Below, in pieces: positions 2,825 through 20,000 of a stretch of DNA of 20,000 nucleotides. Position 1 is the stretch's first letter, and each line of letters begins with the position of its first letter. The translations under genes were made by a program, and so were the position numbers. The DNA comes from Pseudovirgaria hyperparasitica (Eukaryota). The DNA lies in the NCBI GenBank assembly GCA_010093815.1, contig ML996572.1. The stretch is one strand, 5' to 3'. The notes under the pieces are model-generated. The model worked only from the letters and a program-made list of their open reading frames with translations, did no database searches and was not told the DNA's origin.

Positions 2825-3262
2825 TATAATATAATAGGTAACCTTAGATAATAACCTAAGGCTAAGATAGACACCTATAAGGAGAGCTAATTATAGGTAC
2901 TTAGAATAGGTATTCTAAGTAGTCTACCTAGTAATTAAGAATAGAATATTAGTATTCTAAGTAATATATTAAATACTTAGAATAAGTATTCTAATTAGAG
3001 GACCTTAGTAGAACTATATAGACCCTTTAAGCCCGAACCCTAGAGATAGTTCTATAGTAATTAATTTAAACTTATACTAATATAATTACTACTTTACTCG
3101 CCTACTAGCTAGTTACTATTTATACTCTATTAATACTTACTATAAATCTACTTATACCTCTTAAAGCCTTCTAAGTATCTTTATCTTTAGAAAAGCTAGA
3201 ATACTCTATAGAACGGACTACTTTAGGGATAAGCCGTACCCCTATTAGGAAGGTTTATTATA
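2825..3262 (+). repeat. Probable 5' LTR of Ty3/Gypsy element Z (boundaries approximate)
   Basis: Lies immediately upstream of Z gag. It has RIPed inverted termini (tataata at 2825 or 2830 and tattata ending at 3262), a TATA-like tatata at 3015-3020 and internal palindromes such as tacttagaata-gg-tattctaagta at 2898-2921. The partner LTR is not in the window. Confidence 0.55.
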
Positions 3263-3264
3263 GT

Positions 3265-3273
3265 TTAATTACT
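3265..3273 (+). promoter_or_regulatory. Candidate self-priming primer-binding site (PBS) of element Z
   Basis: ttaattact just after the LTR is the exact complement of agtaattaa at 3056-3064, about 35 nt downstream of the TATA-like box. Confidence 0.5.
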
Positions 3274-3321
3274 TATCTTAGACTCTAAAGTAAGTATTTA
3301 CGCTATCTATTTAAATATAAA

Positions 3322-4000
3322 ATAGTAAATAATAGATAATTCTTATCTTCGCAAACTACCCTACGAGTACTAACTATAGAATAAGTTAGATACCTTATTA
3401 CTAAATTAGGGGAGTAAGTTACGGAGCTCTAAAGGGAAAATATTAAACTTAGAAAAGCTAAAGAGGGCTTTAAAAGAAAAATTCTAGAACCTTTTAAAGG
3501 TAAGCGAAGCGAACTCTAAGGATTCCTAATATAGATTAGAATATACCTCTAGGTCTATTAAATTTAGGACCTAGAAGAATAAGTTATATTTACTACTAGA
3601 CTACTAAAGGAAGACGTACTTATATAGTTTAAGCCCTACTTAAGGGACTTTATAGAAAATAATCCATAGAATTAATAGAATAATACTACTAAGGTCTTTA
3701 AACGCTTTAAAGAATTTAAGGAATATATTAAGATAACTTTTAGAGATATAGATAAATAAAGAATAGCTAAGAGATAGATCTAGTAAATAGTCTAGATAAA
3801 ATCTATATCTAACTACGCCTCTAAATTCTAATAAATCTCTAGTTAGCTAGAATAGGATAATAAACCCCTAATTCTCTAGTTCTATACTAGATTATATAAT
3901 AATATTAAGGACGAAATCTCTAGAGAGAGAGACTATCCTACTAACCTCTAGAAGTATATTAAGCTTATAGTCTAGATTAATAACTAACTATATAAGAGAT
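3322..4000 (+). pseudogene. gag of Ty3/Gypsy element Z (chromovirus-type capsid), interrupted by the LINE
   Basis: Frame +1 reads IPEPFEGKRSELQGFLTQIRMYL from 3481, then DALTWFEPYLRDF, YASKFQQISSQLEWDDEPL and AVRIDNQLYER. Confidence 0.88.
3988..4000 (+). repeat. Candidate 13-bp LINE target-site duplication ctatataagagat (left copy; right copy at 9306-9318)
   Basis: Identical 13-mers directly flank the LINE tail and the LINE 5' end. Confidence 0.65.
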
Positions 4001-4237
4001 ACTATAATAATAATAATATTAGTAAACTAGGTAGAGTACCACTCTATAGGCGCATGCCTCCTCTAGTCTAAGCTACTATATAAGAAGAAACCTACGAATA
4101 GGAAAAACTCCCTTATATCCATAACTACGCTCTATCTATCCTCTTGTTCTTTATATATATATAGCCCTAGGGGCTACCCATGGGCCTATAGCCTATATTA
4201 TAATAGTTTACCCTTAGGTAGCACGTATAGATACGGA

Positions 4238-4272
4238 GATTATTAGTTAAGGGCTGCCCTTAACTAATAATC
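4238..4272. repeat. Perfect palindrome with 17-bp arms and a 1-nt spacer at the LINE ORF2 end
   Basis: gattattagttaagggc-t-gcccttaactaataatc read directly from the sequence. Confidence 0.95.
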
Positions 4273-7200
4273 GCGGTTCTCCCGGGGTTCTTCCGATATA
4301 TACCGGGGTTCTTCCGGCATATATCGGGCTTCTTCTAGTATATATACGCGGGTCTACTAGAACTAGAGGAGAGGAAGGTGTACGAGCATCTATCGGGCGA
4401 CGTCCTTAGAGTACTTATTAAGCTATCGCGTAATATTAGAGGTCCTCGTTATACGGACGAGGGCTTATCTTAGGGTATAGAGGCTAGAGTACGTCGCGAG
4501 GTAGTAGTATATTATACCTCTCCGGCCGTAGTCCTCGCACTAGAGAGATATATCTAGGACACCTCTCTAGTAGAGGTAATATAGGAGATCTATAGCGCCT
4601 ATTCGGGCTTAGAGGAGTATGGATACTTAGGCCTTTATTAGCCCTTTATATATCTATTTACTCGGTTCCTTCTAAGGCTCTCGGATCCATTCTAGATACC
4701 TATCCTATTAGGAGGCCCACTGGGCTTTAAGTACCTCCCTCTATTTATCCTAGATCTATGACCGTATAACGCGGCTAAGCTCCTTAGGGCTCTATTAGCT
4801 CGGGATAGTATCCGGGTTATTTTAAACCTCCTACACGGTCTAGCTCGAGTCCGCCTCTATATAGTATTTATATTATACTCGAGTTTATTCTATAGTAGGG
4901 AGGGCCTAGTAATGCGCGCGGATACGTGTACGTAGTACGGCGAAGGTATATACCCTATCTCCTCTACGTTCTTATGCTTATTATTTAGTAAAGTATATAA
5001 GTCTCTATATCTAGTAGAAGTTCTATATACTTATTACGTTTATCTCGCGTTAGAGGAGCGTTATATTAGTAGCTTTATATACGCTAGAGATAAGGCAGAG
5101 TATACGGTTTTATATAGACTTAAGCTTTGCCCGCTAAGCTTATGTAAGGGCCGTGTACTAGCACTCGTGTCTATATATAAAGGCTAGGCGTACTAGGGAG
5201 ACGTATAGCTATCTCGCCTTATCCCGGGCTATTCCCTACGTAGATACTATAATCCGGTATATAGCGGTTTCTATCTAGAGGGCTCTAGAGACGGCGTGTG
5301 CCACCTATGGTCCCTATTTTAGCTTATTATTAATTATGACGCCGAGTGCTCGTATACTCTATGCTAGTAGTTCTATGAAGGCGTCGATTTAGGGGCGACG
5401 TGCCCCCTCCCTAGTAGCCTATTCTCTATAGTAGTTAATAAAGTATATAAGCTAGTATTTTTTAGGTGCGAATTTTACTCTATAGTGCTTTACCTACTAG
5501 ACGCATTTCTCGTAGTCTCGTTCGAGTCGTGTACATGTTCTACTAGTACTACTATCGACCGTGAGGAGGTATATATCATCTACGTATCCGACTATCTCTA
5601 TATATTCTATTCTCTAAAGGAGGTCTACTATAAAGAAGAGGAAGAGGATCGGGGAGATAGTACTCCCTTACGGGATACCGTATGCCGTCTCCTTATATTC
5701 GCTTCGGTATCCGGGGATATATATTTAAGTAGTCCTTTACGCGAGGAAGGACTATATAAATTATATAATCCACTTAGGTATTCGCCTTATCTAGAGGTTA
5801 TGGATAAGTCTTATATAGTTTACCTTATTAAACGCCCCTACTATATCTAGGGAGAGTAGTATAACGACTCGTCCTTATTTCTATATAGTCTAGATAACCT
5901 TAAGGATATATTAAATGGCTATAATTAGGGAGCTTCCTACCTTCGCCTTCTGGTTTACTAGGAGAAGGCCGTATACCTATGCTACTATACTTATCTTCTT
6001 AGTAATCGTGGCTTCTAGTATCTTACTAAGGTAGAAGAGGAGGGCGATTAGTCTCTATCCCTTCGGCGTGTTTAGGCTCTTCTCTAGTTTTAGGAGTATA
6101 ACTATATATACGGTTCGGAAGCTCTATAGGTAGTATTCTATACGGGCGCACGCTCGGAATATATGGCCTATAATTAGTAAGGTCGCCTATATGGTCCTCT
6201 TAAGGCATCGATTTAGAATTCCGTCTAGCCTAGGCGCTTTATCGTTTAGGAGTATCTTAATAGCGCCGAGTATATCGTCGTCCGTGATTTCCCTAGAGAT
6301 ACTTATAGCTTCCGGGTATTCCGTGCCGTTAATATCTAATAGGTCTACGGGTTCTAGGAGAGGGAATATAACCTCTTATAGGATCTCTGTTTTCTCGAGG
6401 CTCGTAGAGTATATCTTTTCTTAATATATAAGAGGGGGTATAAGTGGTATAGGTATCGGGGAGGCGGTGCTTTTAGCCTATTTTACTATATACCATAGTC
6501 TAGTAGTATTACGTGTGTGTCTATCCGTAACTATACGCTACTATTTATATCGCTTATTACGGAGGACCTTATCTCGTTATCTTCTCGTCTCTCTCTATTC
6601 ATTCTACGCTTTAGGTGTATAGTTATAGTATACGCGTGTATATAATCTCCGGACTTCTCGCCTATACTCTTATACTTAAGGTATGCTTTTCGGGTCTAGG
6701 GGTCTATATATTCGGTACGGTACGTGTTTATCTCTTGCTCCCTAGTACGCCTATAGAAGTGTATTCATGGCCTGGTTGATGGCCGGGCCATTAGATACGT
6801 CGACTATAGACGGGTCTAGGATCGTCGATTCTAGGTCCTTTAGGTACTTTTCCTAGTTAGTGTCCTTCTATAGCTATCGCTCTTATTAGTCTTAAGGGGT
6901 AGATACGTCTATTATAGTCTCTATATATTCGTGGTCGGAGTCTATCTATATAAGGCTTAGGCGGTAGTATTAAGTCCTATTATAAATGTATCTAGTGGCT
7001 AGGGTAAGGTTAAGTGTAGATCCGCCCTTATCTTATTTATATTTTCGCTAGGTAATCTATCCTACTAGTATAAGAAGGTATAGGAAGCCGTAGTATTAGG
7101 TATATAGTTCTCTAGCTCGAAGCTCTTCACGGGTAACGGTTAGTCTACCCTACTAGCTATAATAGAGGTTAAAGTCTTCTAGGAGGATGTGTTATCCTAG

Positions 7201-7551
7201 CTTAGTAGTGCCCTTAAGCATGTTATCCGCCTAAAGCAATCGGTTCTAATTATATATATTATGTATATAGAGGGGTCCGATATTCGTCTAGAGGTATAGT
7301 ATTATCCGGAGGTTATCCCGTTTAGTATATAACTATAATAAGAGTAGAATAGACTTATAGATATGGAAGAGGACTCTCCTCTCCGGTCCTAGGGGGTGTA
7401 TTATATAATATCCTAGGTGTATTATTGGTTTGTTCGTCTGGTAGTGTTTATATAGCTCCTATATAGCGAGTATTATAGCTCTAGTCTCCTTAAGGAGTAT
7501 CGCCTAGTTCTTACGTTTATACTATACGTTTACCTATATAATTAGGAGTAT
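4243..7551 (-). pseudogene. LINE ORF2 (APE endonuclease, reverse transcriptase, CCHC), about 1100 codons; no RNase H recognised
   Basis: IQVNV and LAIQEP (about 7540-7453), GDFNLHH (about 7178-7158), TLDLT, SDH (about 6935), LDIVGAFDKV (about 5850-5821), GIPQGSTISPILF (about 5679-5641), GYVDD (about 5589-5575), LGVIIDNKLKW, STWG and CEDCGRRGTIHHYLATC (about 4540-4490). Start and end are in the same frame. The true stop is ambiguous (4264 or 4243). Confidence 0.92.
4282..4344. repeat. Three tandem 21-bp repeats encoding (H/Y)MPEEPR-like units at the ORF2 C-terminus
   Basis: ccggggttcttccgatatata, ccggggttcttccggcatata and tcgggcttcttctagtatata. Confidence 0.9.
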
Positions 7552-9026
7552 ATCTTAGTCTCTTATTAGGTGCTAGGGAATATATAGACCTATATATTTA
7601 TTCCTCTAAGACGCAACTATCCTCGTGCGGCGGCGGCCTTAGTAATTCCTTAGGGCTATCCTATTATTAGCTTTCTCGGGACGGTTTACTATTCCTAACC
7701 GCTTCCTTATAAGGAGGTAGTCTATAGTAGTAGTATTATAGTAAAGAGAGGAATAGTAGTAGATCGCATTATTTATAGCTACCTTGCTCCCTTTATCCGG
7801 ATTAAGTAGATATATTTAGTAACCTATTTATGTTTCGCGCACGTAGCCGACTACGACGGGTACTTACCGTCGTAGTTAGAGTACTTCGCCGTGTCCCTAT
7901 CCCTCTAGCCCTCTCCTCGTGTCCCGTAGGGGTACTTCTAGGTACTATATTCTTATTAATACTATCTATACCTAGTCTTTTAGGAGTACCGCTATGCCGT
8001 ATACCCGTATCCCTAATAGTTAAAGCACTATATTATCGCCTATGCTCTATCCCATGGTTCCGCCATAAGAAGCTCCCCTTCCACTAGGAATCCCTCTTAC
8101 GTAATTTAATGCGCGAGGGCGGGGTCCTTAAGCTCTACTATTATAGTAGAGTATACCTTCGATCTAGTTTTAATCCCTTATATATTCTTCTACCATGCTC
8201 TTATAATCTTAATCCCTAGGTATTTTCGCTTATTTAACTATTCTATCCGCGTGATATCCTCTTCTCTAATAACCTATCCGCTTACGGGTATAGAGTATAC
8301 CTATATCGGGTATATGGCCGCCCTAATAGAGGCGCCTAGGAAGATACTACTAATCGCGTTCGGATCGCGTGAGATAGTCTACTACGCGATATTCATTATC
8401 GTGGTAAGTACTACTCCTCCTAGCGTGAGTTTAGTAGTAACGACGTTTAACTATATTCCCTTTTATTTATTAATCTTACTTACTATATCCTTTGGGGATG
8501 CTTACTAGACCTATACTAGGGTATCCTTATCCTAGATTACGACGCGTATACTATATACCACGTCGCCGGTCCGGGGGGCCCGTAGTATAGCCTCCGGTAT
8601 TACTACTATTTATACCTATATACTAGGGCGCTTACCTTAAGTAAGTTCCTCCTAGATTCTACGTAGGCTAGCCTCTATTCGGTCGAGCCTACCCTCCGGT
8701 GCTCCTAGTTATATCTTCTTCTCCTCCTCTATAATTCCCTTTAGATTCCGGATAAGGTCCTAGAATATATATAGAAGGGTCTTCTAGCCCTCTCCGGCTT
8801 CCTTCTCTATATATACTACCTAGTAGTTAATATAATCTAGGAGGGTTTCCCCTCTCGGGGTCCCCTTTATTCCGTCTATCTATAGTGGCGTGCGCCTTTA
8901 GGTATGTTCTACGTTTTAGATAGGTATATAGTTACCCTCGGTAATATCGCTATATGGCCTTTTCTATCGTACTGGTGGGGGTATATCCGGTATATACCGG
9001 GGTATATCGGTGCCTAAGGCCGCCAT
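7542..9026 (-). pseudogene. LINE ORF1 (gag-like nucleic-acid-binding protein), about 495 codons
   Basis: ATG at 9026 is in frame with CFNCQGYGHTAQRC (from 8027), CGWCQQEHSTQKC and CSNCDGKHPSWSATC. The end overlaps the ORF2 start in the -1 frame. The stop position is approximate. Confidence 0.88.
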
Positions 9027-9027
9027 A

Positions 9028-9060
9028 TTTATTAGTTAAGGGCTACCCTTAACTAATAAA
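9028..9060. repeat. Second copy of the palindrome (15-bp arms), immediately upstream of the ORF1 ATG
   Basis: tttattagttaaggg-cta-cccttaactaataaa. The 31-bp core differs from 4240-4270 by one G>A. Confidence 0.95.
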
Positions 9061-9318
9061 AGGGGGTCGGCGTATCGGCGTTCTAGTAGCGTGGTCCGTG
9101 CCTCTATCTCCGTGAGGATTTTAAGAGGGTATATATATATCTTTATACGGCGATAACGTCTTGGTTTCGACGCTGCACGTACGTGCGTGTAGTAGTAGTT
9201 AGTGTACTTAGTATACTCTATCGATTAAGGTGTGTATCTCGCTGTATTACCCCGAATGGACCAAGTTAGCCTCTTAGGGATGTAAAAGAAGTTTGTAATT
9301 GATCTCTATATAAGAGAT

Positions 9319-10869
9319 TATAACTATTCTATAAAAACGGCCCTACTACACGAGCTTATAAAGAAAAATATAATATTTAAATAGGGACTAAAGTAAGAAT
9401 AAGCATTTTAATAATTAAAAGAGTCTATTATAACTAAACCTATGTTAAAGATATATTAAATAGGAAAACCCTATAAAGTTAAGATAGATATATTAGAATT
9501 CACTATTAGAGGGTAGTTAACCTAGATAGATAAATAAGGGAAAAGATATTCTATAGTATTTTACTCCCGAAAATTCTAAGGATCGGAAATAAATTAGCTA
9601 ATCTATAAAAAAGAACTCTACGCTATAATTAAGTATCTTAAGGAATAGAGAAGCTATCTCTATAGATTAGACTATATAGTAAAGGTATATACTAACTATA
9701 AAAACCTAACTACCTTTACTATAATAAAGGAACTCTAAAAGAAATAAATTAGTTAGTATAAGCTTCTTACGGAGTTTAATATCTAAATTATATACTATAA
9801 AGGATCTAAAAACGGAAGAGCCGACGCCCTTAGCCGATAAGTAGAATATAAGTAAAAAGAACCTACTATAGAATAGACTATATTAGAAATTACTAAAGAA
9901 GGAAACCTTAAACTAATATAATATATTATAGTAATATAAAAAGAATTTATACTTAAGAACTCTAAGGGAAGGAGTATAATCCCGAGGGATAAGACCTACT
10001 ATTTTATTAAAGAATTCTATAAAGATCTAATATACGGATATTAAGGAGAAATAAAAACTTATAAAAGATTTAAGAGATACTATATAACTTATAAGGAAAG
10101 ATAAGTTATTAAGGAAGTTATATAGAACTATATTCTATATAGTAAAAGCTAATCTAATAGATATAAACTATACGGAGAACTTTAACCGATTCCCCTACTA
10201 TTATATACTTAGAAAATAATCTCTATAGACTTTATAATAGATCTACTACTCTTAAGAGAACTAGTTTCGCGAGTATAGTATAATACTATACTAGTAGTAG
10301 TTAATAAACTTATGAAGTACGCCTACTTTATACCCTATTAAAAGGATATAGATATAAAAGAAATAGTCTATGTATTTCTATAAGTAGTTATAGTAAACCA
10401 CGGTTTACCTAATAGTATTATATCTAATAGAGATAAGCTCTTTATATTAAACTTTTAGAAAAGTCTAGTGCGATAGCTTAGAACGAACTACTAACTATTA
10501 ATAGTCTACTATCTATAGATAGATAGATAAATAGAGATCCTAAATAGAATACTAGAATAATACCTCTAATACTATATTAATAAATAATAAGATAATTAGA
10601 TAGAACTACTACTACTAGCTTAATTTACCTATAATAGCGCGATAACCTTAATAACTAAAACCTTACTATTCTATGCGAACTACGGATTTAACTCTATAGC
10701 TAGCTATAATTATAAACTAGAATAGTCTATACCAAAAGTAAAGATTAAGGTAGAATAACTATATAAGCTATACTTAGAGCTATAGACTAAACTTTTTTTT
10801 ATAAATAAAAGAATAATAAAATATATAAATTAAAAGAGAATAAAGAGACTATCTCTAAGGGAGAGAGAC
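9319..10869 (+). pseudogene. pol remnant of element Z: RT thumb, RNase H and integrase up to the GPY/F module, cut by LTR X
   Basis: NYSIKTAPLHELTKK, VETDASEFTIGG, VAFYSRKF, IHEKELYAI, YTDHKNL, NGRADALSR, HHCC zinc-binding motif (HKDPMHGH...CILC), ISMDF, SDRDKLF, YHPQTDGQTE, and GPSLREGD ending at 10869. Assignment to Z rests on strand, position and the shared 13-bp repeat. Confidence 0.9.
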
Positions 10870-11177
10870 TGTTAAGATCATTAACAAGTTAAGTTATATT
10901 AGTTATAAAGTATACTATTTTCTATATACGCATCCGGTTGGTTATATTTATATAAACGACCGGTTCGCAACTACCTACATTAATTATATATAGTATATAC
11001 TACTACTATAGCTATAATAAGGTACCCGAATTTAAGAAAATCTACTACTACCCTTAGTAGCTTTACGCGTAACGCTTAGCTAGATACGGGTTTATATCTT
11101 TATAGATACTATAGCGCGGTTAATCTACGGCTAAACCGACGCTAGGGAGTTCCTTAGCGGGCGCGATATACTTTATA
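10870..11177 (-). repeat. Probable 3' LTR of element X (about 308 bp) with adjacent polypurine tract at about 11178-11190
   Basis: An abrupt tgtt... start at 10870 interrupts the Z integrase. The ends tgttaag and ctttata form an imperfect RIPed inverted repeat. On the - strand aaggggac precedes the LTR. The inner boundary is inferred without a partner LTR. Confidence 0.6.
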
Positions 11178-11352
11178 GTCCCCTTAGAGCGACCTCATCG
11201 CTTAGCTAGTAGCTTAGTAACCTTAATATCTTTATTATTATCCTAGTCGACTTACTATACTTCGCCGGTAGATAGTACGCTAGTTAGTTTATATAAAGCT
11301 ATTACGGGCTTATCTTATATACTATTAGAGTTATTATCTAGAAAAACTAGCT

Positions 11353-13740
11353 TTATAATCTTTTAGTACGTCTTATAATATAACGGTCTATTTAGTAGTA
11401 TTTTAGAAGGTAAGGTTCGTACTACTCGTGACTATAAGTAGCTATAATAGTATCTTCGAGTCTAAAGCTATAATAGTAGTAGATATTCTAGTAGTATTTA
11501 ACTATTTACTTTAGTCTTAACTTCTTAGTATAAAACTTATATTTAGTATCGTGGGTACGGTTTAGGTACTCCTATATATACTCACTAATTTCGTTATTAA
11601 ATAACCTTATGGTATATTTACTATACTTATAAATTAACTTTATAGGCTCGAGGAGGTTAACTACCTTCCCTAGAGGCCCTAGTCGCTTAATTAGCTTATC
11701 TATTTAGTATAAGTAATATTCTAGTTCTCTACGGTTAGCTAGAGAATAAGCTAACTTACTTAGGCTAGGTAGGAGACCTAGGTAGTTAACTAAATTAGGC
11801 TACTTAGACTTTTATTAAAATAACTAAGATAATATTTTTAAGGTGGCTAAGGTTATCTTTATAACTAGGCGGGGCTATACTATAGCGAAATCGCTATTAA
11901 TTTCTTCCTTATTAGACGAGATAACGACTTATTCCTTTACGAGCTTAGGTTAGATAATATAAGAGTCCCTCTTAATAGTTAGTTTTTTAAAAACTAGACT
12001 TTCTATAACTACTCTATTAAGGCCCTATATCTTTTTAGCGGTGCTTACTTTCTACCGAAAGTCCTAGAGTAACGTAATATATATATCTAGATTACTCTTA
12101 ACTTTAAAGGAGTCTTTAGTTATTAAAATAGTATACTTGAATATAGATTACTTATATCTATTTTTAACTAAGTTAATACCTTTATCGCTAATAAGTTTAT
12201 AAAGAGTTTTAGCTTACTTAAGGAGTATTATATATAGGTTATTCCCGGTAGCTATTAGAACGGACGTTAAAAATTATACCTAGATAGCTACCGTGGTTCT
12301 CTAGTCGACTATATTTACCTTGATAGATAAGGTTATATTATATAGTTATTAGTAGATATTAGTAAGATAGACGTCGGCCTAGGTTAACTAGTTAATAATT
12401 CTTTTAACTACGTCGAGGTTATACACGTAGATACCTAACATAGTTACTTCCTTATTATCCGGCTAATCTTTCTATAGAATCGCGATTAGATTAAATCTTC
12501 GCGTACCAGTTTTAAAATTAATTACCCGACTTAATTTAGGCGTGAATAGCGATAGGTTACTAACGTTTAGTACTAAGCTACCTAAGTTTATTTACTATCT
12601 ACTTAACTAACTATACGGCGAGCTAAAGTCCGAATTATCGGTAGTAGTTAGCGATATAAGTAACGTAGTATATATATAATCTAATTATCGTGATTAGGCT
12701 AAAATTAGATCGTCTACTAGACTTTTTATAGTTAGATATACGGCGCTTATAATCTTTAATAGTCGCTTAGCTAAAATGCCGCTATCGTTATCTTCGTGTC
12801 TATATATTAGATTAATATCTAAGGGTACCGCCTAAGTATAACGGTCGGTTTCATTCGCTATAAATAGCTTATCTTTAATTACCTAGGGCTTAGAACGAGT
12901 CTTTTCTAGAATCTACTAATAATATAGTAGTAATATCGCTACTCTACTAAGTATAAATTAATTAAAGATAATCACGACCTTATTATTTAAAACGCTAGGG
13001 GCTTCGCACGGGAGATAACCGTCCTAAAACTATCCTTCTTTTAAGAATACGGCCGGCTATTAGATACTAACCTTACCCTTTCTTATAATCCGTTACTCTA
13101 TTACTATAATAATTAGTAACTTTACTCGGTCGGACGGCTAGACGTTTATAGACGGCTAAGTTATATAGTTCTCTATAATATTAATAGAATAATCTATATA
13201 AAATAGCTATAAATTATATTTTAATAGGTGCCGTTATTTAGTTATAGAGAAATTACCTACTACCAGCCTATTACTAGAGATCTATACGGGTAGAGCCGAT
13301 GATAAAGGGTATTCTATTACTATATATTCTAGAAGAATTAGTAGAAAAGCTTTTAATAAGCTAGGAAAACTCTTAGAATCTATCTAGTTCGCTATTACGT
13401 TATATAGAGCTATATAGGATAGTTAGTTAGCTAGGTCGATATTTACTCGCGCCTAAATCTTTTCTATAGGCTACTAGTAGTACTTTTCACCTACCTTTAG
13501 ACGTAGATATAGAAGGATATTAGTTAGTTTAGATTAAGTATAACTATTATAAGCCTACTAAATTAATATACTAGGTCTAGTAAGGATAAAGCTAGTTATA
13601 TATAGTAATTAGTTAATATTATAGAATATTTATAGGTTAGTAACTACGAATAGTAGGCCGTGCGGTTAGCTTAACTATAGTAGTCGTCTTTAGTTAATAG
13701 ATCTAGATCTAGTACTAATCTTTAAGTAAATAATATAAGG
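11353..13740 (-). pseudogene. Extra ORF of element X between pol and the 3' LTR, about 720-800 codons, with a putative C-terminal C2H2 x2 plus CxHxxCxxC zinc cluster
   Basis: One frame reads protein-like with only TAA/TAG stops at roughly Gln+Trp frequency. It has an acidic and Ser/Pro linker at about 11940-11760, then Tyr spacings matching zinc ligands at 11631-11410. The start is undefined. Confidence 0.65.
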
Positions 13741-13859
13741 AAGTATTTAATAGTTATATATCTATAGAATACTTAGTAAATATATATATTATAACGCCGC
13801 TCGTTATAATAGATATTAATAGCTCTCTACCTATAATAGCTAGAGGCGGATAGGTATTA

Positions 13860-16800
13860 TAACTTTAAGTAGTCGTCGACCTAGCTAGGCTCCTAGTAGA
13901 CTATTTCTATGGGCTTATCTAAGGTTATATTCTTCGACTAAGTCTAATAGGAGTATACTTCGCCGTATCTACTAACCGAATTCTAGACTATCGCTATATA
14001 CTATTACCTAGTATTTAATAGTTAGTTTATAATTACGCCCGATTCGAATATAGCGCCGATTATAGATAGCTATCGCTATCTACTTATTTATAATAGTAAG
14101 TAGACGTATATCTTCTTTATAGTTAAAATAGTTAAGATCCTTTAGAAATGGTTCTAACTATTTAATAGATATTACTAGGTATATTTTCTATATCTCTAGT
14201 AGCTCTAGTTCATACGCCTAACGGTCTACTATACGTTTAATTAGTACTAGTCTAACTTATTATTAGCTAAGCTTATAATAAGCGCCTAGAATCTTATACC
14301 CTTTATATAGTTAAATATAGATCTAGTTACTAGGAGCGAGATCTAGTAGAGATATATAGCGTCTATTGAAACGCTCCTTCATACGCGTCTAGGCGAATAC
14401 TAGCGTATCTAATGCCTCTTTCTAGTTTATATTACGCTTTTAGGCGTAATTATTTACTTCTATTAAACTAGTCTTCTTAAATAGGGTGCCTTTAGATAGT
14501 CGGAAGCCGTATACTATCTCGTTTAGAGATTTTTATATTAAGGCGTTTATTAAATTATTTATAAGCCGCTAGACTAATAGAATATAGATCGTCTAGTCTA
14601 TAGCTAGTAATATTAAAATAAGAAAACGTAGGGTAATCTCTACCGTTTAGTTCGTGCGTTCGCTTTAACTATTACTCTATTTATAATAAGCGGTTAATAC
14701 TAGGATTTTAGTACTAATGCCCTCGAAAATTCCTTTCTAAAATAATAATAGGAATTTTTGGTCCCTATCGTAAATAATTACGGCTAGGACTCTCTATTCT
14801 AGTAGTATACTCCTTCTAAACGTAGTTACCTATTACGCGGTAGTCTAGTTATTCCGGCCTAGGACGAGGTAGATATACTTAGTAAACTTATCCGTTATAG
14901 TAAGTAGTATATTAAGCCTATTCTATATTAGTAGTCCGATAATAAAGTCTATTATAACTATATAAAATAGTATTAGCGGTAACTAGACTAGCTTTAATTC
15001 GCTATATAGCGTATATCTTTATATCTAGTAAGTTTTATAGGTGGGATAGTACTAAATATAGTATTTTAGGCGCTTTATAAGCTAATAAATAAAGTAGCCT
15101 ACGCGAATTCGATTATATACTTAGAAAAATCCTATATAAGCGCTTTTATTATAGAATTAAGCGAAGATATCTCTATTAAGCGATTTTAGTATATAGATCT
15201 AATATTATCTATTAAGCTAATCGATATAATAAATTATACTATTAGTAAATTAAAAAGGAATTAGGCGGGTAATATTATTATTCTAGTCTAGTACTATAGC
15301 TTTTATACTTACCTAGTACTTATTATTATTATATATATTAGCTAGCTACCTCGTAAATTTTAGGTTAATTTTAACTATTATAACGTTAAACGTCGAGAGC
15401 TTCTTAAGAATATCTAAGTCTCTTAGCTAGGCTCTATCATAGATCTAACGGAGCCGAGAAAGAGCGTTAGGTACCACGTACTCTTTATCTAGTCTATATT
15501 TAAGCTCTAGATTAAACTAGAATAGATACTATAAGGCCCGTACTAGTTAGAGATTTAGCTTATTAACTAATAAGCTTATAAGCGCTATCTATCGAATAAT
15601 ACTTAGCGTGGCTACGTGGTCGGTAATAATAATTATTAGTTAGTCTAAACCGTTAACTATATAGTATATTAGGCGTATAGTCTATATAACTACTACTACT
15701 TCTAGCTCTATTAGCTAGTATCGCAACTCGGCTATAGAGAGCTCTTTACTAAGGTATAGAATAGGCTTAATATCTAATTATCTAATCTTTATAATATCGT
15801 CTACTTCCCCTTTAATATAGTAAGTAAAGACTCTAAAGCCGTACTTTAATACGTTAATGTCTACGTAGAGCTATTATTTTAGATTATAGTAGACGAGCTT
15901 AGTCTCGTCCGCGAAGGCGGCCTAAATACCCTTCTATAATACTAATAGCTAGTCTATTTAAGCGATCTTTATTTATTTATAGTATACTATATATATATAT
16001 ATCCCGCTAAAGGTACTTCTTTAAGAAGACGCGTTTTCTCGGTCTATAGATTCTAGGCGAGCTAAGTGTAATATAGTATATATTACCGTAACTATCCGGT
16101 TAGTCTAAGGTAGTATTCGAGCTTATCGAGCGTTTCGGGATACTAGAGATTATATATAGCTACTAATTTCTTAGCTATAGTAGAGAGTCTATAAGTATCG
16201 ACCTTCTAACCGAGTAGGGTAATAGATAGGTATTCTAAGTAACACTTTTTACCTTTAAGCGTTAGGTTTCTTACTTATAGTATAGTAAACACCCGCTAAA
16301 GATAGTTAAGATACTCGTTAAGTTCCTTACTAAATGCGGGAATATCGTTAATATATACTATAGCGAACGCCTCGCATCTAGCGTCGTATAAGATCTTATT
16401 AATCTACCTCTATATATACGGTAGAGAGTTATAGAAACCTATTAGAATAACATTTAACTACTTCTAGCCCTAGTACGATATAAACGTTAGTTTATAACGG
16501 TCTTCCTTAGCGACCGGCTACTAGTAGAAGAAGCTAGCTATATTAATAATAGATATAAACTTCTTTCTAGCCGTATATTAGATAATATTACCCTAGAGTA
16601 GTAATAGATAGGAGTCCTTAATACTAATTTTATTTAGGCCTCTTATATCTCTAACTACCCGACTAGCGTCCTTACGCGATATCTAGATAAGTAACTTTAC
16701 CATAGAGTATATAATAAATATTAGGAAACCGAATAGTATTATCTATATCGGGTATTCTATATAACCTTATATATAAAGCTTATTATATATCTTATTAATA

Positions 16801-17051
16801 ATGGCCTTACCGCTTGCTCCTAACGGGTAGATACGGTAGCTTAGCTTTATACTAGCCATTTTCTAGTTACTTACTAGGGGGATACGCATCTAGTCTTTCT
16901 CTAGAATATTTATAAGTCTAGTATTATAAAATAAGGTAGCGTAACTTCGGATAATCTTATTAAATATCTAGGTAGTCGCTTCGTCTTTAGCGAAAATTTT
17001 TATACTAAATATACCTATCTATTTAACTTTATTAAGCCGAGTAAGCTTTAT
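13860..17051 (-). pseudogene. Ty3/Gypsy element X, 3' half of pol: RT, RNase H, integrase and degenerate chromodomain
   Basis: IPEKDWMRIPL, RIYPLG, RVVGDIRGLNK, DSYPLPLQGDII, ASFFYQW, YIDD (literal YIND at 16355-16344), LYVDIDASK, HHCC motif (HDESAH...CPTC), TIDFIIGLP, SDRD, WKIHPVISIEQLEP, and a chromo-like segment at about 14085-13924. There is one frameshift, at the (TA)n run 15988-16002. Confidence 0.92.
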
Positions 17052-17279
17052 TATTAGGACTTAGCCTTAGGTAGAACCCGACCTATACGTACCTTAGCTA
17101 ATAGGGTTAGGAGGTAATGTAAAGGGCGGTAAATAGTCACGTACTAGATAGATCGGCGTCTCTTTATATATATACTCTCGGATTTCTACCGAAAGGGTTT
17201 AGTAGTAATTCGTTCTATAATAGAATATACCCTATTATTCTATCTAACTATACTACTATCTAATAACCCTATTCTTATA
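17052..17279 (+). repeat. 228-bp 5' LTR of element Y
   Basis: Matches the reverse complement of 1751-1978. It contains a TATA-like run at about 17165-17174, is preceded by tttat and is followed by a PBS-like sequence and gag. Confidence 0.95.
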
Positions 17280-17313
17280 TTTAAATTACTCTCTATATAG
17301 TACTATAGTTAAG

Positions 17314-18627
17314 ATAGTCTAACTAGAACCGAGAAGGTCGACACGATCTACTATAGAGATAAGTAATACTATATTAAATAATAGGGATCCTCTATAATTA
17401 GTATTAATCCCGGCCGTTTCTAACCGAGAAGTAGAAATATTAGACTAAATCACGGAGCTTTTAGATGAAGAAATGGTAGATACACCGAGTAACTTCTAAT
17501 AATATAAAGCCGGATAACGAGTCGTGGCGGAGCTATATAAGGTATTATAATAAACCATTACCGAACTTTAGGAATACATTGCGAATTAGGCTCGAGAGAT
17601 TTAAACCCTTAAAGAATAGATAGAACGCGCGAAACTCCTCGTAAAGAGACGAGAACTTAAGGAGTCTCTTAAAGAACTACGCCGAACGATAGTAGGTGGA
17701 CGACTTCCTATACTAATTTAGGCGGAATTAGTTTATCTACTATTAGAGTTATGATAATCTACCGTATACCTAGCCGCTTCGTTACCGATTTACCCTACTC
17801 CTTCTCTAGGTATACTAAAATCTAAAGACCCGACTATATTTATAGGGAAGAACTAAAAGGAGTAGAAAGACTAGAAGAGAGACTACGAAAAGTACTTCCT
17901 TAATAACCCTCTACTCTTTTCTACTAAAGTATAACGCATTTCATTCAAAGAACGATACCTAGACTTATAATCCCGCGATTAATAGAATAGATAGAAGGAA
18001 GTATAGCTACTATGTACGATAACCTAGAAATATTTAGCTATATTTATACTAAACACCCTTAGAACGGATAGAGAACGTGAAAGAAAGGCACTATCTAAGT
18101 TAAGAAGCGTAGTATAACGACCGAACTAGACACCTACTTAACTACTATAATACCTCTAAAACCTATAGAATAATATCCCTATACTATAGAAAAATATTCG
18201 TATATTCTAGTTTCGCGAAGTACTACTTCCGTTAATCCGCGAAAGACTAGAAATAGTATTATTAAGTTTTAACTATCTATATAAATTAGAGGAGAAAGCT
18301 AATAAATACTACCGCATCCTTAAGGAACGCGGCTCTCTAGGTAAAACTAACGAACTCTATACGGGTTAGAAACGAGGTCAATTAAATACGTTTAATTAAG
18401 AGTAACCTTCCTATAATTAGTACTAGAAGAGTATAAATCGGGGTAGAAACGCGTTAAGAGGATACTAAAATAATTAAGGTGGTACTTCTTAACGCGGAAA
18501 AGAATAAGGCATAGGCTTAAATATAACGCCTATCGTAAAATAGTAGGATTATAGTATACTTCGTTACTATAAGTATAGAGAAATAGAATATATTTCGCCT
18601 AACTATAAGAATCTAAAAAAAGAATAG
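17314..18627 (+). pseudogene. gag of element Y
   Basis: Probable RIPed start ATA (MVQPEPRRSTRS), KDPTIFTGKNQKEWKDWKRDCEKYF near 17824, zinc knuckle CYKCGETGHISPNC at 18565-18606, and TAG at 18625-18627. Confidence 0.85.
18615..18621 (+). promoter_or_regulatory. Candidate -1 ribosomal frameshift slippery heptamer A AAA AAA
   Basis: It is in X-XXY-YYZ phase with gag just before the gag stop, and the protease frame is -1 relative to gag. Confidence 0.7.
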
Positions 18628-20000
18628 GCTAGTATACGAGACCTAACCGCGTTCTTAGCTAAATTATATATACTTAGGAGGAGCCGTAGCGCCTTCCGGC
18701 GAGTAAAGACCTAATATTACTAAAAGTATTATTACCTATAGTAAATAGTAATAAAACTATATAGACCCTTATAGACACTAGTATAGAAGATAACTATATT
18801 TCGTTAATTCTTATAAAGGAGTATAGATTATTATATAATCTCGGTAAAGTTAGCCGAACTATCGTAGTTAATAGATATAAAGTTAGAACTTTAGGTAAAG
18901 CTATAACGAATTATAAAGTTTATAACTTAAAGATAATAAAATAGTAGATATCTAATAAATTTATTATAGCTAATATTAGCTAATAGAATATGATTCTAGG
19001 GATACCTTAGCTTAGACGCCTAAACCTAATCCTTAATTTTTAGAAGAAGATATTAATGTTCCGACAATACCGTGGTAAATTATACTAGTAAGTCGTAACT
19101 ATTAGTAAGAAGGTATAGAACCTCGCTATACGGACCCGATTATTACTAATCTATCTTACGTCCTTATCGATTATCGATAAAGACAAGGATAATAGTAATA
19201 ATTAGGGCGAAGACACGCTACCCGATATATATTCGTAGTATATAGATATATTTTTAGTAGGAGATACGTTACTTCTCCCTAATTACAGGCCGTATAAGCT
19301 AAAGATCGAGCTTAAAGAGAGAGTAGACGTCCCTTATAGCCTACTTTATCTACTTTAAAGACTAGAACTTAAAGTTCTTTATAAATATATTAAAGAATAC
19401 CTCGAAAGAGGCTAGATATATTATAGTATATTATCGGCTAACGTATCTATTCTCTTTATAAAGAAGAAAGACGGAAGTTTACGTCTATATATCGACTATT
19501 AGGTACTAAATATAGTAACTAAGAAGAATTATTATCTATTACCACTAGTTAGTAAATCTTTAGACTAATTAATAAAGGTAAAGTACTTTACGAAGCTAGA
19601 TTTATAAGATATATATTACTAGCTTCGAATTCGTCGTAGAGATAAGTAGAAAACCGTATTTCGGACTAGATATAGTTATTTTAAGTATACTATTATGCTA
19701 TTCAGGCTAATAAATGCGCTAGGAGCGTTTTAAGGATATATTAATACTATACTTATAGGATTACTTAACGTGATTTATATAGTTTATCTCGCGAATATAC
19801 TAATTTACTCTAATAGTATATAGAATTATAAAGAACACGTGAAATCGGTGCTAAATCGTCTAAGGTAGTATAAACTCTATATAAAATTATCTAAATGCGA
19901 GTTTTACTAATAAGAAGTTGGGTTTCTCGGCTTTATTATAATATATAGCGGCCTAAAAATAGAGCCGGAGCGTGTAAAGACTATTATAGAATAGCTAGAA
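18615..20000 (+). pseudogene. pol of element Y: protease and reverse transcriptase (partial)
   Basis: LIDTGAEDNYIS at about 18768, ILGIPWL, VPYGPLYPL, LFVKKKDGSLRLCIDYRALN, KYFTKLD, WKTAFRTRYG, MPFGLTNAP, the catalytic motif position at 19785-19796, and KLSKCEF. Confidence 0.93.

Follow-up and report, generated by a model that had tools for sequence, protein, structure and literature searches.

Does a Gypsy retrotransposon of Pseudovirgaria hyperparasitica carry a gene of its own behind pol? The question is raised by a 20,000-nucleotide stretch of contig ML996572.1 (assembly GCA_010093815.1), the whole of which is called the window here. Its minus strand holds the remains of a Ty3/Gypsy element, referred to as element X, and for the interval 11353-13860 behind its pol the original prediction described a large additional open reading frame ending in putative zinc fingers. 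We conclude that a real protein-coding gene once existed in 12990-11353, in frame -0 (the minus-strand frame with codon starts at positions divisible by 3), in sense with pol and downstream of it, and that this copy of the gene is dead. In the reading we prefer, to which we assign a rough probability of 0.55, Gypsy family X would carry this second gene as sense cargo, placed downstream of pol and upstream of a terminus at 10870 and probably ending in zinc fingers.

The locus has to be read through heavy repeat-induced point mutation (RIP), which changes C to T and G to A and leaves purine/pyrimidine identity unaffected. RIP indices are extreme; in 11353-13860, TpA/ApT equals 1.81 and (CpA+TpG)/(ApC+GpT) equals 0.09. 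The GC content of the window is 0.25-0.35 except in 4000-9000, and open reading frames of at least 80 codons occur only within 5485-8508. The extra gene and its immediate surroundings consist of the following parts.

11353-12990, minus strand: ORF2 core, the coding remnant of the extra gene; 546 codons in frame -0, delimited by stop depletion and purine periodicity
12733-12990, minus strand: block homologous to the protein P0001 (see below); 86 codons against the C-terminal 87 residues of P0001
11410-11625, minus strand: cluster of tyrosine units, with units at ORF2 residues 648, 676 and 696
12991-13869, minus strand: stretch between the end of pol and the ORF2 core; 880 bases with no clear coding signal
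10870-11352, minus strand: non-coding tail and candidate 3' long terminal repeat (LTR), with a ...CTTAACA terminus at 10870 and no coding periodicity

Frame -0 reads through 11353-13860 as 836 codons with 67 stops, all of them TAA or TAG and none TGA. The same frame holds the RT_RNaseH match of element X, so both the coordinates first given for the stretch and the frame it was said to share with the integrase are borne out. The absence of TGA, which had been taken as a sign of coding, turned out to carry no such weight. Counts of TGA (or of TCA, for the opposite strand) over the six 500-base bins of 11001-14000 were 0, 4 and 1 for the three minus frames; the plus frames gave 3, 2 and 1. Because RIP destroys TpG (and CpA), TGA is nearly absent from all six frames; the stops of every frame are thus RIP-type, and having no TGA and only RIP-type stops holds for practically any of them and does not single out frame -0.

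The density of stops, on the other hand, differs between the frames. The other two minus frames contain about 14% stops, whereas frame -0 contains 7-8% in 11353-12990, level with the pol of X. By segments, stops make up 23 of 279 codons in 13569-12733, 27 of 344 in 12732-11701 and 6 of 116 in 11700-11353, and the last of these reaches a binomial p of 0.0018 on its own. Further towards pol the depletion is lost: there are 12 stops in the 100 codons of 13869-13570, which is the background level, and at 13500-13050 frame -0 has about as many stops as frame -1.

The second line of evidence is the distribution of purines over codon positions, a bias that RIP cannot change because it keeps purine/pyrimidine identity. 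In frame -0 of 11500-13000, purines occupy 0.61 of first positions and 0.48 and 0.49 of second and third positions, a difference of about 5 standard errors, and this bias exceeds that of the pol of X (0.57) and of its reverse transcriptase (0.59). The sliding purine profile stays above zero between about 11550 and about 13000, with a peak of 0.21, and is close to zero from 13860 to about 13000. The expectation of a frame that is protein-like for more than 700 codons can therefore be upheld for 546 codons (12990-11353); above about 13000, frame -0 has no advantage over frame -1 and the purine periodicity is gone. Frame +0 of the non-coding tail (10870-11352) also has few stops, 9 in 161 codons, yet it shows no periodicity, and we treated it as noise.

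The third line is homology. A phmmer search with the 836-residue reading (X at stops) returned one protein at E<=0.001 among 1,835,955,588 representatives. This protein, P0001, is the hypothetical protein EJ05DRAFT_486397 (XP_033599784.1) of Pseudovirgaria hyperparasitica, 234 residues long; query residues 291-371 match its residues 148-228 with 38% identity and E 8.1e-4. With RIP-aware scoring, in which each codon of the window may stand for any residue encodable before RIP, the match is confined to frame -0 (236, against 74-112 in shuffles) and the other frames stay at the null level. In Smith-Waterman alignments to residues 148-234, with 200 shuffles each, the unreverted sequence scores 111 against 26.6 +/- 3.2, and the sequence with RIP reverted in TpA context scores 231 against 46.4 +/- 6.3. 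The block thus reaches z of about 27-29, and undoing the TpA-context changes alone doubles its score (z of about 29). Stops of the window are aligned to W five times and to Q twice, as RIP predicts. P0001 and the extra gene are hence alike in the last 87 residues of the former (12990-12733), with differences that RIP accounts for to a large extent.

Residues 1-147 of P0001, in contrast, have no match in the window, and their alignment to 13860-12991 is not significant (z 0.5-1.4). We also considered an open reading frame beginning at 13569, where Met1 of P0001 would fall, and dropped it, as the N-terminal part was not significant in the split test. The gene may extend upstream through a poorly conserved N-terminus, and 12991-13869 may represent a spacer, a fast-evolving N-terminus or a hidden junction. 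It is the agreement of three independent lines, namely stop density, purine content by codon position and homology, that leads us to speak of a dead gene.

What did the end of the protein look like? Near its C-terminus frame -0 contains YSKY-x11-Y-x3-Y, YKFY-x11-Y-x4-Y and Y-S-H-E-stop-Y-E-P-Y, the last with an intact CAC codon for His, so the three tyrosine patterns reported earlier are present letter for letter. A second intact CAC His codon lies in the linker ...NRTHDTK.... All three units fit Y-x2-Y-x3-L-x4-I-x2-Y-x3/4-Y. The first two are 28 residues apart and are joined by an 8-residue linker that holds the intact His codon, and the third abuts the second. Such a tandem pair, defined by a loose pattern, was found in 0.11% of whole-ORF shuffles (p 0.0011); when only the last 120 residues were shuffled, which preserves the local 20 Tyr, the share was 1.6% (p 0.016). 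Tyr accounts for 9-10% of the residues in each frame, and the six frames with their 39,996 codons contain 33 matches to the loose pattern; three of these 33 matches cluster in frame -0 at 11625, 11541 and 11481.

Classical C2H2 zinc fingers follow C-x2-4-C-x12-H-x3-5-H, with a conserved hydrophobic core and, in arrays, a period of 28 residues. The units of the window resemble such arrays (zf-C2H2) in the x2 and x3/4 spacing within the pairs, in their fixed hydrophobic positions and in the 28-residue period; they differ from them in that the ligands read Tyr, except for two His, and in that Pfam gives no match. Some observations speak against fingers of this kind. The spacing between the pairs is 11 in the window and 12 in the C2H2 consensus. 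The opposite strand is Tyr-rich in the same place and has three overlapping matches to the loose pattern (frame +2, 11529-11547). A stricter pattern was met in 0 of 20,000 shuffles, a figure to be read with the fact that the pattern was defined after the data had been seen.

All in all, the regularity of the units is non-random and would fit Cys and His zinc ligands turned into Tyr, and a former zinc-binding module at the C-terminus appears somewhat likelier than its absence. The additional RING-like half that had been proposed finds no support. A RING finger needs eight cross-braced ligands (C3HC4), and only Y-x-H-x2-Y-x2-Y, which is four of the eight positions, is present, with no C-x2-C pair before the stop at 11353; moreover, the motif lies within the third unit and overlaps the end of the second finger-like unit.

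To decide whom the gene belonged to, the element in front of it has to be described. Two features represent its pol.

13870-15768, minus strand: RNase H, integrase and chromodomain-like end of X in frame -0; Pfam RT_RNaseH at 15768-15600, E 2.8e-5, 24.7 bits (cut-off 24.8)
16202-16997, minus strand: reverse transcriptase of X in frame -2; Pfam RVT_1 at nt 16580-16202, E 1.6e-4, 21.9 bits (below the cut-off of 29.6)

The reverse transcriptase has 18 stops in its 265 codons of frame -2, where the two remaining minus frames have 23-35, and it is separated by a frameshift from the remaining pol in frame -0, where 52 of 633 codons are stops. The RT_RNaseH match sits in the frame -0 translation that begins at 18399. 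The Pfam scores of these domains are weak because of RIP. Despite that, the order reverse transcriptase, RNase H, integrase is kept on one strand, as in Ty3/Gypsy elements, and the integrase of X matches that of a neighbouring plus-strand Gypsy element, Y, with a RIP-aware diagonal score of 127 (null maximum 68-82). The same scoring applied to one reverse transcriptase against another gave 84.5 only, and so has low power for this domain. A chromodomain-like reading was made by eye at about 14050-13880; Pfam Chromo has no match there at E<=10, a threshold at which the integrase of X is unmatched as well. At its 5' side X is cut off next to a 235-base repeat (17052-17285, minus strand) that recurs in inverted orientation on the plus strand at 1742-1976. 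The two copies score 603 in a transition-tolerant scan (null 53-63) and share about 94% identity with sharp edges, and the differences inspected are transitions. The inverted pair is embedded in otherwise unrelated RIP-degraded sequence. X is a RIP-saturated, 5'-truncated copy of a multi-copy Ty3/Gypsy retrotransposon.

The pol of X also teaches us how to read the blank results obtained for the body of the extra protein. The three minus frames of 11353-13860 gave 0 Pfam families at E<=0.1, sub-segments gave 0 at E<=10, and there was no match to PDB sequences at E<=1. As controls, the integrase of X (14122-15600, minus strand) likewise gave 0 Pfam families at E<=10, and the RNase H-integrase-chromodomain part was unmatched among 7,998 scored candidates. 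Since even the integrase of X yields no family, the blank Pfam result is uninformative. A RIP-aware comparison of the extra gene with the gag, protease, reverse transcriptase, RNase H, integrase and LINE pieces of the window gave 75.7 at best, within the shuffle maximum of 68-82 (the integrase pair mentioned above serving as control). The dead extra gene belongs to no family that these comparisons name.

Its homologue adds little in this respect. P0001 has no Pfam family. None of 473 longer candidates was related to it, of 93 candidates similar in length it matched itself alone, and relatives were absent from the metagenome contigs searched (with protein and alignment queries) and from the viral contigs searched. 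In the ESM Atlas there was no usable feature match, and all structural matches had TM <=0.30 on a model with pLDDT 0.33.

Several observations connect the gene with X. Contigs of the sequencing runs X1 and X2 at >=80% likeness cover 30 of 30 bins of 9001-17000. Within the extra gene, 7-12 distinct contigs of run X1 carry variant letters at the sites listed (e.g. 12186, 12306 and 13264), and because several contigs do so, the gene is multi-copy and not a single host gene. Summed contig depth, which is not a copy number, is similar on both sides of the boundary between pol and the gene. The joints and loose ends listed include none at 13000-13900 and no junction between 10870 and 17050. At the other end of the unit, contigs of other Y copies diverge after 10869 as loose ends, and three joints place 10872, 10873 and 10899 beside other positions of Y, one of them in opposite orientation and two with sides of less than 30 bases. 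Joints of this kind around 10870 are what independent insertions of one mobile end would give. From the shared strand and frame, the multi-copy state and the ...CA terminus, we consider it probable that the extra gene is linked to Gypsy X.

Some points have to be set against the cargo reading. No contig listed bridges pol and the gene, the listed pieces being at most 302 bases long. The 880 bases between the two could hide a junction, and the window is pieced together from truncated elements lying against one another. X has no 5' end here and, as set out below, no LTR pair, which leaves the location of the gene within the element a presumption. The fold of the protein is named by no match in Pfam, PDB or the protein libraries, and P0001 is itself an orphan with a low-confidence model. 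Finally, an LTR pair was not found: 10870-11352 has no second copy in the window. An exact-seed repeat search gave no LTR repeat. When the two presumed LTR regions were reduced to purines and pyrimidines and aligned, they scored 49, against 40.5-56.5 in shuffles. When 9000-19200 was compared with both strands of the entire window, transitions being tolerated, the 235-base repeat was the only match. Scans for terminal repeats and polypurine tracts gave nothing above chance, and an inverted 16-mer at 11213-11228 is within chance expectation. As X is 5'-truncated here, the absence of an LTR pair from the window says nothing for the family.

The same observations can be assembled in a different way. 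The gene might be a remnant of a different repeat, either a transposon or a duplicated fragment of a host gene, that came to lie beside a doubly truncated X. The patchwork around it would suit such a juxtaposition, with Y broken at 10869, X cut at about 17050 by the 235-base repeat and a LINE-like block at 4240-9068; so would the missing LTR pair, the stretch without coding signal behind pol, and the annotation of the sole homologue as an ordinary hypothetical protein. However, a chance neighbour would have to share the strand and frame of pol, be multi-copy like pol, leave no joint or loose end at 13000-13900 among those listed and end in a canonical ...CA. We regard this explanation as possible and, on balance, doubtful.

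A closer tie to X would exist if the segment were the C-terminal part of the pol polyprotein, with the true stop of pol hidden by RIP. The frame shared with the integrase would allow this, and RIP stops mask any original stop. Nevertheless, stops are at the background level in 13869-13570, purine periodicity is absent from 13860 to about 13000, and phmmer, used without a length limit, found no polyprotein that carries the block. The suggested fusion with pol is thus unsupported, with 880 bases past the chromodomain-like end lacking a clear coding signal, and we consider it quite improbable. That there was no gene, and that frame signal and Tyr patterns arose by chance in AT-rich RIP sequence, could appeal to the uninformative lack of TGA and to the general abundance of Tyr and of the loose pattern, but it is close to refuted by the homology to P0001 in one frame only, the purine periodicity and a stop depletion equal to that of pol.

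If the extra gene is cargo of Gypsy X rather than a neighbour, the reading we prefer continues as follows. The gene would form a separate open reading frame and not an extension of pol. Its transcript would have been spliced or driven by an internal promoter, like those of the accessory frames in other LTR elements. The Tyr units would originally have been zinc fingers of the C-x2-C...H-x3/4-H type, whose TGY and CAY codons RIP then changed to TAY. Through them the protein would have bound nucleic acid, most likely DNA, and it may have steered integration or influenced how the element was transcribed or silenced. In its boldest form the proposal would be that of a chromovirus-type Gypsy family with a large accessory zinc-finger gene of uncatalogued fold, whose product steered integration or countered host defence, whose only surviving public relative is the orphan P0001, with the whole family later erased by RIP in this genome. 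This extended version we regard as speculative and rather unlikely in its entirety.

At least four retroelement fragments, facing both ways, are nested in the window. Besides X, these features were recognised.

9395-10869, plus strand: element Y, of Gypsy type, carrying RNase H (nt 9395-9777; Pfam RT_RNaseH_2, E 7.2e-16, and RT_RNaseH, E 7e-13) and after it an integrase
within 9395-10869, plus strand: integrase of Y, from a reading by eye and the RIP-aware match to the integrase of X
from about 17500 to about 20000, plus strand: third Gypsy element; gag and protease by eye at 17500-18800, RVT_1 at 19458-19940, E 1.5e-16
about 3100-3950, plus strand: gag-like reading
4240-9068: LINE-like block with a raised GC of about 0.41, less affected by RIP (index 0.26) and containing a minus-strand RVT_1 (about 5340-6063, E 2e-15)

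The break of Y at 10869 is where it abuts the tail of X, and the two stand tail-to-tail. The summed contig depth of Y is about twice that of X, and Y may be the more abundant family, subject to the caveat that summed depth is no copy number. The LINE-like block is bounded by near-identical palindromes of 31-40 bases (4240-4279 and 9029-9068, 88% identity), which, each being palindromic, also match mutually as inverted repeats. Runs X3 and X4, which bear the same species label and come from a separate study, match the window at 9029-9082 only and were not used as evidence. Past 9082 their contigs are G-rich and resemble an unmutated counterpart of the A-rich loose end of run X2 at this place, the differences being G-to-A at TpG. 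This hints that another isolate might hold an un-RIPed copy of the neighbouring element.

Accessory genes of LTR retrotransposons are rare, and they reveal how the elements negotiate with their hosts. The present case also has a methodological side. In RIP-saturated DNA, profile searches miss even the integrase of an element, and "no hit" should not be equated with novelty; purine periodicity, which RIP leaves invariant, and RIP-aware alignment can still recover dead genes.

Several known systems can be compared with X. Fungal "complex transposons" arise when several insertions hit the same locus (Muszewska et al. 2011; PMC3248453). Extra domains enter Gypsy-like annotations through such nesting, which is the known ordinary alternative for X; unlike in the complex transposons described there, the segment behind the pol of X resembles no other element type in the window. 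A full-text search of the literature available returned no report of a fungal Gypsy element with a sense-strand zinc-finger open reading frame behind pol.

Outside fungi, additional coding sequence 3' of pol is described for the ORF3s of bdelloid rotifers and for an m6A-demethylase domain in orchid Ty3/Gypsy elements (PMC5408684, PMC9289625). The placement is the same as in X, and hosts and proteins differ. The rotifer and orchid frames have recognisable domains, whereas none is recognisable in the X gene through its RIP damage.

Few such genes have been noted in fungi. The closest case is that of the Boty-like (BcGypsy1) Ty3/Gypsy elements of Botrytis cinerea, for which an additional gene, brtn, and other predicted open reading frames are mentioned (PMC8365987, citing Zhao et al. 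2011). Boty-like elements and X are both fungal Gypsy elements with a gene beyond gag-pol. According to the title cited there, brtn is an antisense gene, whereas the remnant in X lies in sense and downstream of pol, the two being compared by description only. If our assumptions are true, a sense zinc-finger gene of 550-740 codons behind pol would represent a new type of accessory gene in these elements.

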